Origin: Candidatus Hodarchaeota archaeon
GTDB lineage: Archaea; Asgardarchaeota; Lokiarchaeia; Sigyniarchaeales; SOKP01
DNA: 64,000 nt
Reading direction: 5' to 3'
Assembly: GCA_048887225.1 (NCBI GenBank)
Contig: JBHLJY010000008.1
Coordinates: forward strand, 46,384 to 110,383
The position numbers and the translations under genes are program-made. The notes under the pieces were generated by a model, which saw only the letters and a list, made by a program, of their open reading frames with translations, was not told where the DNA came from and made no database searches. Position 1 is the stretch's first letter. Every line of letters starts with the position of its first letter. Positions 12,082 to 16,001 of this stretch are shown here, one piece after another.

Positions 12082-13221
12082 TTAAACTCTTTCCAACTCC
12101 ATTTCTTGAATCGCTTTTCCAGACCTGAAAGGAATATCATCAACAGATTCCCCTGGACAATATCCGAACTTTTCGTTAAAAGCTTCGTTTAAAGACATGA
12201 AGTATAAACTTAAAGGCAGATTCTGAGGGCAGTTATTATAACAGTTACCACATTCAACACAGCGATCCGCAACATGTGCTATTCTTGTCAATTGATAAGT
12301 TTCTTTGTTTATAGTTTTTTCTTTTCTTTTTTTCGTGAGAATGCAATCTACACAATAACAAACTGGGCATCCACGGATACACATACCACACATCGTACAA
12401 TTCAGAAGTCTCTCAATTTTTTCTTCTTGAGGAACTTTTGCCCATTCTTCAAGGTCCTTCTTTCTTTTCTCTTTTGCCTTTTCAAGAATTTCATTCATTT
12501 TTGCTGTGTGAGTGTCTTTTATATCATCAGGTAATAGCTTTTTATCAATCTTAGATTTTTCTAGGAGATCATTTCCCTTGTCAGAATAGACTTTTAATAT
12601 AATCTCATCAGAATCAATGGGTATTCCAATATCACTTACGCTCAAATCTGCAATAACAGGTATTTTTCTTGTGCATCTTAAGCAATTATCAGAGGGTTGA
12701 ATATTTAGTTCTTTGGTCTTTCCATCAGCAAATTTAAAAATTAGTCCGTTATCGCCAATTTTTTCTTTTATTATTTTACTGGGATCGATCTCCTTCATGT
12801 TCTTTATTTCTCGACCAACATTAATAGCCATTCCCCTATCCTCAATTCCAATAATAAAAAGATTGTCTAGCTCAACTTGTTTTATTTTTGCCAATTCAAT
12901 TAAAGCTCGTGTATCGCAGGGACGAGCAATAAGACCTATTTTTGCGTTTTTAGCACCTTCTACCGATTTATGTAAATATTTCGCAGCAGAGTCAGTTCGA
13001 GCATAGCCGTATGCAATAAAATTATATAGAGGGAAGCTATTAGCATCTCCTAATTTATCAATTAATTTAGGTGTAATCGTAAATCTATCAACAGCATTCG
13101 TTTTTTTATCTACTCTTTCTTGTGCACTGATAATTTTATCTACGATTTTTTCCTGCAATAATGAGCCTAATAACTTAGGAAAATCTTCACTTTTTATAAG
13201 ATATTCTGCTATTGGGTCCAA
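12082..13221 (-). CDS. FdhB/FrhB-family subunit with C-terminal 4Fe-4S dicluster
   Basis: ARPCD.RAL.EL.K..Q, CLRC, CTMCGMCIRGCPVCYC..C, CVECGNC...CP. Confidence 0.8.
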   Translation of the reverse strand: MDPIAEYLIKSEDFPKLLGSLLQEKIVDKIISAQERVDKKTNAVDRFTITPKLIDKLGDANSFPLYNFIAYGYARTDSAAKYLHKSVEGAKNAKIGLIARPCDTRALIELAKIKQVELDNLFIIGIEDRGMAINVGREIKNMKEIDPSKIIKEKIGDNGLIFKFADGKTKELNIQPSDNCLRCTRKIPVIADLSVSDIGIPIDSDEIILKVYSDKGNDLLEKSKIDKKLLPDDIKDTHTAKMNEILEKAKEKRKKDLEEWAKVPQEEKIERLLNCTMCGMCIRGCPVCYCVDCILTKKRKEKTINKETYQLTRIAHVADRCVECGNCYNNCPQNLPLSLYFMSLNEAFNEKFGYCPGESVDDIPFRSGKAIQEMELERV

Positions 13222-13289: not shown

Positions 13290-13363
13290 TATGCGTTAAT
13301 GGAGCTTCCATTTCTTCTACTAAGTTCTCATTTTTTTAACTTAGTTTCATTAGCTAACACATA
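13290..13363 (-). promoter_or_regulatory. SECIS element, eukaryote-like, in the 3' UTR of mvhD
   Basis: Lower stem UAUGUGUUA/UAACGCAUA; AUGA-A ... A-GA-A core; upper stem ACUAAGUU/AACUUAGU; A-rich loop; begins immediately after the stop of a gene with in-frame UGAs. Confidence 0.85.
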
Positions 13364-13825
13364 TTATGTTTTTGCCTTTTCTTTGGCTTTTTTCTTTTCA
13401 GGTGTGCCGCCTTTGGGTCTTAATGGGCTAGGACCTAATTCTCTTATCACTTTATCGAATTTAATTGCAGTTTGCTGAAATTTTTGACCCTCTGCTGCAG
13501 TGCAATATCCCATCATTATTCGCTTTTCATTTAATCCAATCGACTTTAAAACTTCTTTTATGTATTCGACTTGACGGTAAGCGAAGTAATTTCCCGTCTC
13601 ATAATCGCACTCTTTAGGGTATCAAGCAATTATCATCACACCATCTGCCCCGCGCCCAAATGCTCTCATAATGACATCAGCACCAACTCTACCGGTACAA
13701 GGGACTAAAACAGATCTTATTGAATCGGGATACTGTGCTCGAATTGTTCCTGCCATATCAGCAGAACCATAACCTCATTTCCAGCATAAAAATGCTATAA
13801 TTTTAATATTTTCATCTTTTGCCAT
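13364..13825 (-). CDS. mvhD: MvhD/VhuD [2Fe-2S] subunit, selenoprotein (U17, U68), 153 aa; absent from the ORF track
   Basis: MAKDENIKIIAFLCWK-U-GYGSADMAG...VPCTGRV...GADGVMIIA-U-YPKECDYETGN; TGA at 13775-13777 and 13622-13624; GAGGTG RBS upstream; TAA at 13364-13366. Confidence 0.93.
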
Positions 13826-13842
13826 TTCTTTTATTCACCTCT

Positions 13843-15807
13843 CTATTCCTCAATTGGTAATAACTCATCAATAAACGCCATGTATTGATCATCCCTAAAG
13901 TATGTTAGCTCAATTGCTTTCGATGGACAAAGTGCTGCACATGTTCCACAGCCTCTACATAATATGAGATCAACGACAAGGTTTCCTTTCTCGTTTACTG
14001 AAATAGCATTAAATGGACACGCTTCAATACATTTATAACATTTAGCGCATCTTTCATCTGAAGGATCTGCTCTAATTAGTTCCATTGTATATTCTCCTTT
14101 ACTCATTGGAATTGATGCTGTTGATGCTGCTCCTTTTGCTTGACTTACAGCTTTATCAATTTCTTTCTGCCCTTGAGCAGAGCCACAAATAATTATTCCA
14201 GGTACTTTAGTACTAATCGGATCAAGGCGAGCATGATATTCTTTAAGAAATCCATCTGGGCTTCTTTCCATATTTAAAATCTTTGCGATTTGCAACGTAC
14301 CTGCGGATGGCAATGAAGCAGGTGATAACACAACCATATGGAACTCTGCTGTTATTACAGCATCGGTGCCAACAGGCTCAAACTGCACTCTTAGATTTTT
14401 AGTCAAGGGGTCTTCTTCAATTTTCCCTACTAGCCCTTTAACGAATATAATTCCTGCATCTCTAGACCTTCTATAATATTCCTCGTAGTCTTTCCCACAA
14501 GCTCTCATATCAATATAAGTACATAGAATCTGCGAATCGGGATATTCTGATTTTATGAGTTTCGAGTTTTTAAGCGATAAATTACAACAAATAACGCTAC
14601 ACCATGGATTTTTTTTGACATCTCTGGACCCAACGCAATTAATAAATAATACCTTGGTTGGGCGCTTACCATCGGAAGGACGTTGTAAATGTCCAAGAGT
14701 CGGTCCATTTGGTGCAAGAATTCGTTCTAACTCGATTTGATTAATAACATTCTCATATGTTCCATATCCATAATCATCTCCCTTATAGAGATCCCACCCC
14801 GTGGCTATTATAATCGTTCCTACTTCAAGTTCAATAATTTCATCTTGCTGACTAAAATCAATAGCTTCTTGTTCACAACCATCGACACAAGCAAAACATT
14901 CTACACAAGATACTCTTTCAATATTAGAAACTGCAGGAACAGCCTGGGCAAATGCAATATCAATCACTTTTCTTGCAGAGAGGTTTTCATCAAAGTAGTT
15001 AGGTACATATATTGGACAAACTTCAGTGCAAGTACCACATCCAGTACATTTATCTTCATCTACAAATCGAGCTTTTCTTTTAACTTTCACTTTAAAATTT
15101 CCAATATACCCATCGACATTAACTATTTCGCTGTATGATAAAATTTCAATGTTCTCATGGCGATTAGCTTCTAACATTTTCGGTCCCAATATTCATATTG
15201 AGCAGTCATCAGTTGGAAATGTTCGATCGAGTTGAGACATACGACCTCCAATTGTCGTATTTTTCTCAATTAAATAAACTTTAAATCCTTCATCCCCTAA
15301 ATCTATAGCAGCACTTAGCCCCGCGATTCCTCCTCCAACTACTAACGCAACAGGTTTTACTGGAACTGTCTTTGTAGGAACATCCTCTAATAATCTAGCT
15401 CGCGCGATACCAGCTCTTATTAATTCAATAGCTTTTCCTGTAGCGCTTTCTCGAACTTCAAGTGCTTGATGTACGAAAGAGCAATGTTCTCTTATATTGA
15501 TAAATTCTAAATATCTTGGAGGTAATCCAGCTTCTTTTAAGATAGCATGAAAAACAGGTTGATGTGTTCTTGGAGTACATGCTGCAACAACAATTCGGTT
15601 TAGTTTATGATCGACAATTTGTTCCTTGATATAGTCAGCACCGCCAGTAGTACATACTGATATATATTCATAGGCATAAACATTTTCTAATTTATTGATC
15701 TCTTCTACGATTTTTGGAACGTCCAAAATACCAGCAATGTTGATACCTCAGCGACACACGAAAACGCCGACGTTTGATTCTTCTTCTATGGTCTGATTTT
15801 CAGACAA
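13843..15807 (-). CDS. hdrA: Heterodisulfide reductase subunit A, selenoprotein (U20, U205), 654 aa; split in two by the ORF track
   Basis: One frame: NVGVFVCR-U-GINIAG (TGA 15748-15750) and FPTDDCSI-U-ILGPKM (TGA 15193-15195); GGGIAG FAD motif, ACTPRTH, CVGSRD, ferredoxin motifs; TTG start at 15807 (GTG at 15816 is an alternative). Confidence 0.93.
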
Positions 15808-16001
15808 TTTTTTCACTTTTTTAGCTATAACCTATTATTATAATTCTAAAATAATATTGATGATTAAGTTAATAGTTCTATCATTATAAAAATAATCGTT
15901 ATAAAATTTCACGATAATATTAATATTTTAAATGATAGGATCCATCAAAACTAACAAAAAAAAAATAAAGAATATTTAGAGAATAATATAAAATTTTATA
16001 A

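Follow-up and report, generated by a model that had tools for sequence, protein, structure and literature searches.

How can four UGA codons, placed in two neighbouring genes, be decoded as selenocysteine (Sec) when a single recoding signal lies past the second gene? This question is raised by the genes hdrA and mvhD (the latter also called vhuD) of a Candidatus Hodarchaeota archaeon, which are found on contig JBHLJY010000008.1 within a stretch of 64,000 nucleotides that was analysed as a whole and is called here the window; all the features of the window described below are read on its minus strand. The locus is very probably an ordinary Lokiarchaeial (Promethearchaeota) hdrA-vhuD/mvhD cassette, whose four UGAs would be read as Sec through one selenocysteine insertion sequence (SECIS) of the lokiSECIS type, located past mvhD and acting across the cistron boundary. 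The original prediction, made from the letters of the window, had described each gene as one frame with two TGA codons at conserved cysteine (Cys) positions, the genes as lying 17 nt apart with no room for a SECIS between them, and a hairpin after mvhD, about 2.4 kb from the first UGA, as the only SECIS-like candidate and the one element for all four codons. These descriptions of the locus were borne out, and the sharing of one element, which is the same conclusion as that given in the text of Mariotti et al. 2016 (PMC4989117), is supported by comparative evidence.

When TGA is read as Sec, each gene becomes a single open frame. hdrA (13843..15831; 662 codons) starts with GTG at 15831, an alternative GTG start being present at 15816, and stops with TAG at 13845-13843, and mvhD (13364..13825; 153 codons) extends from ATG at 13825 to TAA at 13366-13364. 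Under translation table 11 both are broken into fragments, and the practical consequence is that gene callers split hdrA as well as mvhD. The 662-aa product of hdrA, a heterodisulfide reductase subunit A-like flavoprotein, contains the Fer4 and FAD (flavin adenine dinucleotide)-binding domains of Pfam and aligns over its full length with solved HdrA subunits (E 2e-207 with the best solved structure). The 153-aa product of mvhD belongs to the F420-non-reducing hydrogenase delta subunit family (Pfam FlpD/MvhD, PF02662, 4.6e-42) and matches solved MvhD/VhuD chains with a best E of 9e-34.

Each of the four TGAs faces Cys or Sec in solved structures and relatives. The first one (15748..15750) is residue 28 of HdrA, in the motif VCRUGINIAG of an N-terminal MvhD-like domain, and is aligned with the second Cys of VCYCGANING in the solved structure 9sfi_A. 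The second (15193..15195) is HdrA residue 213, the canonical HdrA Sec position, within the CxxU motif DDCSIU (C210-U213); it faces the X, i.e. the Sec of the methanogen enzyme, of TDDCAMXILAPKM in 9sfi_A. In mvhD, the third codon (13775..13777) is residue 17 of FLCWKUGYGSAD and faces the last Cys of FCCNWCSYGGAD in 8rvu_F (CWKU vs CNWC), and the fourth (13622..13624), 51 codons further on, is residue 68 of IIAUYPKECDY and faces the Cys of VGGCHIGDCHY in the solved structure (IAU vs GGC). The HdrA alignment was made with the window copy, 14 orthologues from other genomes, and four Sec-type and two Cys-type copies of this genome: in columns 28 and 213 all the Sec-type HdrAs (19/19) have U and the two Cys paralogues have C, and every extra U column of the other HdrA copies is opposite Cys. 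Residues 17 and 68 of MvhD are likewise U in three other mvhD copies of this genome. The closest relatives of mvhD, from the same family and order, contain two TGAs each, and those of hdrA contain two to four.

The site of C210-U213 is the same as that of Sec197 in the HdrA of M. maripaludis, which is part of a Cys-Sec pair with the N-terminal cluster on one side and the bifurcating FAD on the other (PMC13518236). By this correspondence, the canonical Sec of the window HdrA would lie in its CxxU motif beside the bifurcating FAD, and the other three Sec appear to replace conserved Cys of the MvhD fold and of the MvhD-like N-terminal domain of HdrA. Altogether, the four UGAs of the two genes almost certainly encode selenocysteine.

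It may be asked if these TGAs are instead sequencing or assembly errors, lesions of pseudogenes, or the result of a genome-wide reassignment of UGA. Such an explanation is formally conceivable and hardly credible: the same four TGAs are kept across many genomes at 50-85% protein identity, and the genome has the full Sec machinery as well as a SECIS. Besides, in the assembled contigs of a strain about 96% identical, obtained from the metagenomes of other studies, none of the four TGAs is altered among the best-supported differences listed. Sequencing errors and pseudogenes are excluded because the same Sec/Cys columns are found in relatives and independent contigs are unchanged at the TGAs. With regard to reassignment, TGA is the stop of 13.9% of the open reading frames (ORFs) of at least 200 aa in this genome (30.5% GC) and, being a normal, minority stop, it has not been reassigned genome-wide.

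The scarcity of TGA stops, which the original prediction had taken as a further sign of recoding, does not serve as evidence. It is correct that none of the seven genes of the compact cluster that extends from aor to gap ends in TGA (0/7), but at a rate of 13.9% this has a p of about 0.35, and the scarcity reflects the preference for TAA in a genome of 30% GC; the argument was therefore dropped. The count of only three TGA-ending genes in the window was also too low, since about six real ORFs have this stop. In 30/30 related loci hdrA itself, which precedes the SECIS, ends in TAA or TAG; being TAG in the window, this stop is not recoded. The hdrA genes of Lokiarchaeota described in the text of the 2016 paper never end in UGA (PMC4989117).

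The genome search for the Sec machinery that had been proposed together with the prediction recovered all the components: tRNA-Sec, SelD, a PSTK-like kinase, SepSecS and EFSec. SepSecS (445 bits) and EFSec (250 bits) pass the curated cut-offs, PSTK is clearly the best family for the kinase (E 2e-45), and selD has an in-frame TGA and its own SECIS. The SECIS after selD (contig C2:205431-205465, plus strand) has the standard lokiSECIS form, its stem having 9 bp and its loop 11 nt; the text of Mariotti et al. describes the element of the Loki SPS gene as a distinct, type II-like form (PMC4989117).

The tRNA-Sec gene (contig C4:44554-44703, plus strand) lies directly upstream of SepSecS and was recovered solely by blastn using the tRNA-Sec of relatives. 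It is split by two introns, one of 30 nt in the D arm and another of 31 nt in the T loop, and in the fold of the spliced molecule the acceptor, D and T stems have 9, 7 and 4 bp, respectively, the anticodon is UCA and the variable arm is long. The search of the whole genome with Rfam model RF01852 returned ordinary tRNAs under the cut-off and no tRNA-Sec, and neither ARAGORN nor a strict custom descriptor found tRNA-Sec in the genome. The Rfam cut-off is reached by 0/10 genomes of the genus and by those of sister genera, and this genus-wide failure is probably due to the same two-intron split; an apparent lack of tRNA-Sec in this genus is an artefact of standard tRNA tools, which miss the two-intron gene. 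The only Loki tRNA-Sec described in the text of the 2016 paper has the 31-nt T-loop intron alone (PMC4989117). Another two-intron tRNA gene close to SepSecS was considered as tRNA-Sec and rejected because of its UAU anticodon; it is 184 nt long, with two long inserts, and is located just downstream of SepSecS (C4:46936-47119, minus strand). In the ARAGORN list, many other tRNAs of this genome also contain introns.

The signal past mvhD has all the published lokiSECIS features. Its core (13316..13350) begins 14 nt past the mvhD stop, 2.40 kb from the first UGA, and consists of AUGA (13350-13347), a 9-position stem formed by AACUAAGUU (13346-13338) and AACUUAGUA (13326-13318), an 11-nt loop, AAAAAAAUGAG (13337-13327), and the closing GA (13317-13316). 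The first five bases of the loop are A, and its last base is a G preceded by A. The kink-turn signature of SECIS elements is present in the sequence and in the predicted fold, from which a quartet with sheared G.A pairs would be expected. The same element is found directly past mvhD in 26 related loci, and in 17 orthologues two-sided changes affect eight of the nine stem pairs, 93.8% of the cells being paired vs about 40% in slid controls. Another alignment, taken from the covariance-model search, includes chance matches and did not enter these pair counts.

Two pattern scans and a covariance model agree that this is the sole SECIS match in the 64-kb window. The covariance model was built from the orthologue group of this element, and under its default filters it did not recover several of the paralogous SECIS that this genome contains; with the filters off, it gave 13363-13290 at 90.7 bits (E 9e-25) over the 64 kb, the runner-up reaching 16 bits. 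For generality, the pattern scans rather than the covariance model were used. No SECIS-family match, only chance matches, was obtained with Rfam in the whole window at gathering thresholds or in the 11.0-18.7 kb region at E up to 10; the Asgard element reaches no Rfam SECIS model.

If there were a second signal, it could be hdrA that has its own one, of an unrecognised kind, inside the coding sequence of mvhD or in the 5' leader, and the downstream element would serve mvhD alone. The intergenic spacer (13826..13842), which contains a Shine-Dalgarno-like GAGGUGA motif, cannot hold a SECIS because it is only 17 nt long; as no other candidate is available either, hdrA has to share the downstream element or use such an unrecognised signal. 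Nothing positive speaks for the latter, apart from the fact that the scans model the AUGA/GA type alone and that a very relaxed pattern gave one match inside aor (17261-17232). This match, upstream and within a coding region, has seven stem positions and includes a mismatch; neither the relaxed patterns nor the unfiltered covariance model revealed any other, and the published surveys describe, in their text, no second element near hdrA-vhuD pairs (PMC4989117). A signal of its own for hdrA is therefore very improbable, and the shared lokiSECIS is preferred.

The core proposal, four Sec codons in two cistrons with a single SECIS, is well supported by these comparisons of sequences. From them we infer that hdrA and mvhD are most likely present on one transcript, that Sec is actually inserted and that the one SECIS acts on hdrA. 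The UGAs would be decoded by Sec-tRNA(Sec), brought by an EFSec of the archaeal/eukaryotic type, and this decoding would be directed by the single kink-turn lokiSECIS over distances of 0.27 to 2.4 kb, beyond the boundary between the cistrons.

Some points have to be set against this proposal. No transcript, proteomic or 75Se evidence was found that concerns the locus or, more broadly, any Asgard archaeon. The PSTK-like kinase scores 155 bits, under the strict NCBIfam equivalog cut-off of 290. A covariance model made from the orthologues of one element could miss a second signal that is very different from it. Finally, in this assembly the 9-position stem opens with an A.A mismatch, the other eight positions being Watson-Crick pairs. 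Related to this last point, position 13318 is U and not A on the RNA strand in about half of the contig depth of the likely source sample, as well as in contigs of three other metagenomes; with U at this position, the A.A of the stem base is replaced by an A-U pair, which is also present in the contigs of related strains.

The arrangement and its reading as a shared SECIS were already published in 2016 and 2024, so the pair is neither "hidden", as the original prediction had called it, nor new, and the inference drawn from it is a rediscovery. Mariotti et al. 2016 describe hdrA-vhuD pairs of Lokiarchaeota with a single lokiSECIS downstream of vhuD, which would be the signal for as many as six UGAs along about 2 kb, and report in the text that no SBP2 homologue was found in Loki (PMC4989117). 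Huang, Xiao and Zhang 2024 state that hdrA and frhD (their name for mvhD/vhuD) are always neighbours in Asgard metagenome-assembled genomes (MAGs), almost all of them with one eSECIS-like element, thereby extending the shared arrangement to hundreds of MAGs (PMC11227280). As far as the text of the 2016 paper describes them, the Lokiarchaeota loci are like the present one in gene pair, gene order, strand, very short spacer and phylum; their VhuD, of about 150 aa, contains two Sec separated by about 50 codons (153 aa and 51 codons here), and their HdrA is a multi-Sec protein that includes the canonical position near residue 200 (PMC4989117). The differences from that description are the number of Sec, 2+2 here and up to 4+2 there, and the A.A at the base of the stem, and nothing essential differs (PMC4989117).

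Orthologous VhuD and HdrA proteins whose Sec positions (two in VhuD and the CxxU of HdrA) are Sec here too are also known from Methanococcales and Methanopyrus. In these methanogens, in contrast, the available descriptions indicate an archaeal SECIS with a GAA_A bulge, an element of its own for each gene and a single-Sec HdrA. The element of the window shares with eukaryotic SECIS (kink-turn, AUGA/GA quartet, AAR loop; SELENOP mRNAs) the core signature and the adenines of the apical loop, and with the multi-UGA SELENOP mRNAs the proposed kilobase-range action, exerted on several UGAs by an element past the coding sequence. It differs from the eukaryotic elements in its shorter upper stem, in the prokaryotic bicistronic mRNA to which it would belong and in the third arm described below. 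Cassettes of this kind are textbook evidence that Asgard archaea join an operon-style organisation with a eukaryote-like SECIS acting remotely on many UGAs, and they bear on the origin of the eukaryotic Sec system; the window offers one more clean example with the full machinery, and no new principle.

What can be added beyond the paper texts searched concerns the structure, as the SECIS forms part of a three-way junction that is conserved and includes an additional hairpin with a GC loop. The extended element (13290..13363) is a conserved block of 74 nt, compared with 35 nt for the core. It is formed by a closing helix, in which 13363-13356 pairs with 13297-13290, the joiner AGCUA (13355-13351), the core, a second joiner, AGA (13315-13313), and an accessory hairpin, in which 13312-13307 pairs with 13303-13298 around an AGC loop (13306-13304). 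The fold was obtained from Alifold and single-sequence folding (-16.3 kcal/mol, z -4.8). The same architecture is found in 35/35 lokiSECIS cores, which represent at least 12 sequence-distinct classes, and the summed pairs amount to 415 vs 193 ± 27 with random genomic flanks and 263 ± 22 with swapped upstream flanks. The accessory hairpin has 4-6 bp and contains GC in its loop in 33/35 elements, vs 2.6 expected.

A similar topology has been named k-junction, in which, as Wang et al. reportedly described in 2014, a third helix is placed on the non-bulged strand, between the helix of the G.A pairs and the canonical helix. The resemblance holds at the level of secondary structure in 35/35 elements, three-dimensional geometry being outside the reach of sequence. 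The running texts of the 2016, 2024 and 2026 papers, figures and supplements apart, do not mention the junction and limit themselves to a lower stem and an internal loop. In particular, the type I eSECIS-like model for Asgard archaea, as given in the text of the 2024 survey, has a core GA_[G/A]A, 7-15 bp in the upper stem and 8-20 nt in the apical loop, besides a lower stem and an internal loop for which no highly conserved nucleotides are reported (PMC11227280), whereas the 3' side of this "internal loop" is here the conserved hairpin with its GC-containing loop. If the three-armed SECIS is confirmed, it belongs in SECIS search models and may hint at what the Asgard SECIS reader recognises.

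The position of this element within the transcript is a different matter. The next gene on the same strand (12082..13221) encodes an FrhB/FdhB-like Fe-S protein and begins, with a TTG start, 69 nt past the junction. In 18/18 orthologous loci the frhB-like gene is downstream on the same strand, 69-170 nt past the junction. A motif, GAGUUGGAAA, is located at 13234-13225, just upstream of its start, and is kept 4-5 nt before the start of the frhB-like gene in the window and in the 17 orthologous loci, the start codon itself being variable (TTG, ATG or GTG) and the rest of the spacer unconserved and AT-rich. GAGUUGGAAA, which is unlike the GAGGUGA motif ahead of mvhD, could be a ribosome-binding or regulatory site. 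Its conservation ahead of the start indicates that the frhB-like mRNA has a leader, and the downstream position in 18/18 loci with a conserved motif suggests that the frhB-like gene goes functionally with the hdrA-mvhD pair.

Read-through into the frhB-like gene and transcription from a separate promoter are about equally likely. The SECIS could be placed in a genuine 3' untranslated region (UTR), the hdrA-mvhD transcript ending shortly after 13290 and the AT-rich spacer providing a separate promoter for the frhB-like gene. In that case, the "internal" position in a polycistronic mRNA that the original prediction gave to the element would not apply, and the reading of a shared SECIS would be unchanged. 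This possibility, which has a little less than an even chance, agrees with the unconserved, AT-rich spacer of 69-170 nt between the junction and the next gene in all the orthologues, and with the published models, which in their texts place Asgard SECIS in 3' UTRs (PMC4989117, PMC11227280). It is opposed by the constant presence of the frhB-like gene on the same strand, by the conserved GAGUUGGAAA as a mark of an mRNA leader, by the lack of any run of five or more U between the junction and the frhB-like gene in this window, and by a paralogous locus on contig C12, where a SECIS-like junction comes after hdrA and, 45 nt further on, a frhB-like gene led by GGAGG. The reading by eye of the spacer for promoter and terminator signals gives no clear signal in DNA of 30% GC. 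A wider proposal would make the SECIS intercistronic in a longer operon transcript (hdrA-mvhD-[SECIS]-frhB-like-fer4, perhaps from aor to gap) and its third arm, the 4-6-bp GC-loop hairpin stacked on the closing helix, the docking site of an Asgard SECIS-binding factor that replaces SBP2; as a whole, it must be considered rather unlikely.

The compact minus-strand cluster from aor to gap to which the cassette belongs comprises, besides the three genes already described, aor (18479-16548) and a ferredoxin gene (16547-16002) upstream, and a second ferredoxin gene (12019-11255) and gap (11052-10051) downstream. The source DNA is present in sediment metagenomes, and the MAG is 98% complete.

At least four hdrA-mvhD-SECIS cassettes are present in this genome. 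Further copies are located at C16:28644-31070 and C1:229424-231926; the C16 copy has 4+2 UGAs and one SECIS, and in both of them mvhD apparently stops at the UGA that is contained in the AUGA of the SECIS core. The hdrA paralogue of contig C12 (C12:40460-42397, minus strand) is not followed by mvhD and has five in-frame TGAs, two of them adjacent and one within the last CxxCxxCxxxCP motif. Its SECIS-like three-way junction lies within about 130 nt downstream and has the core AUGC...AA instead of AUGA...GA.

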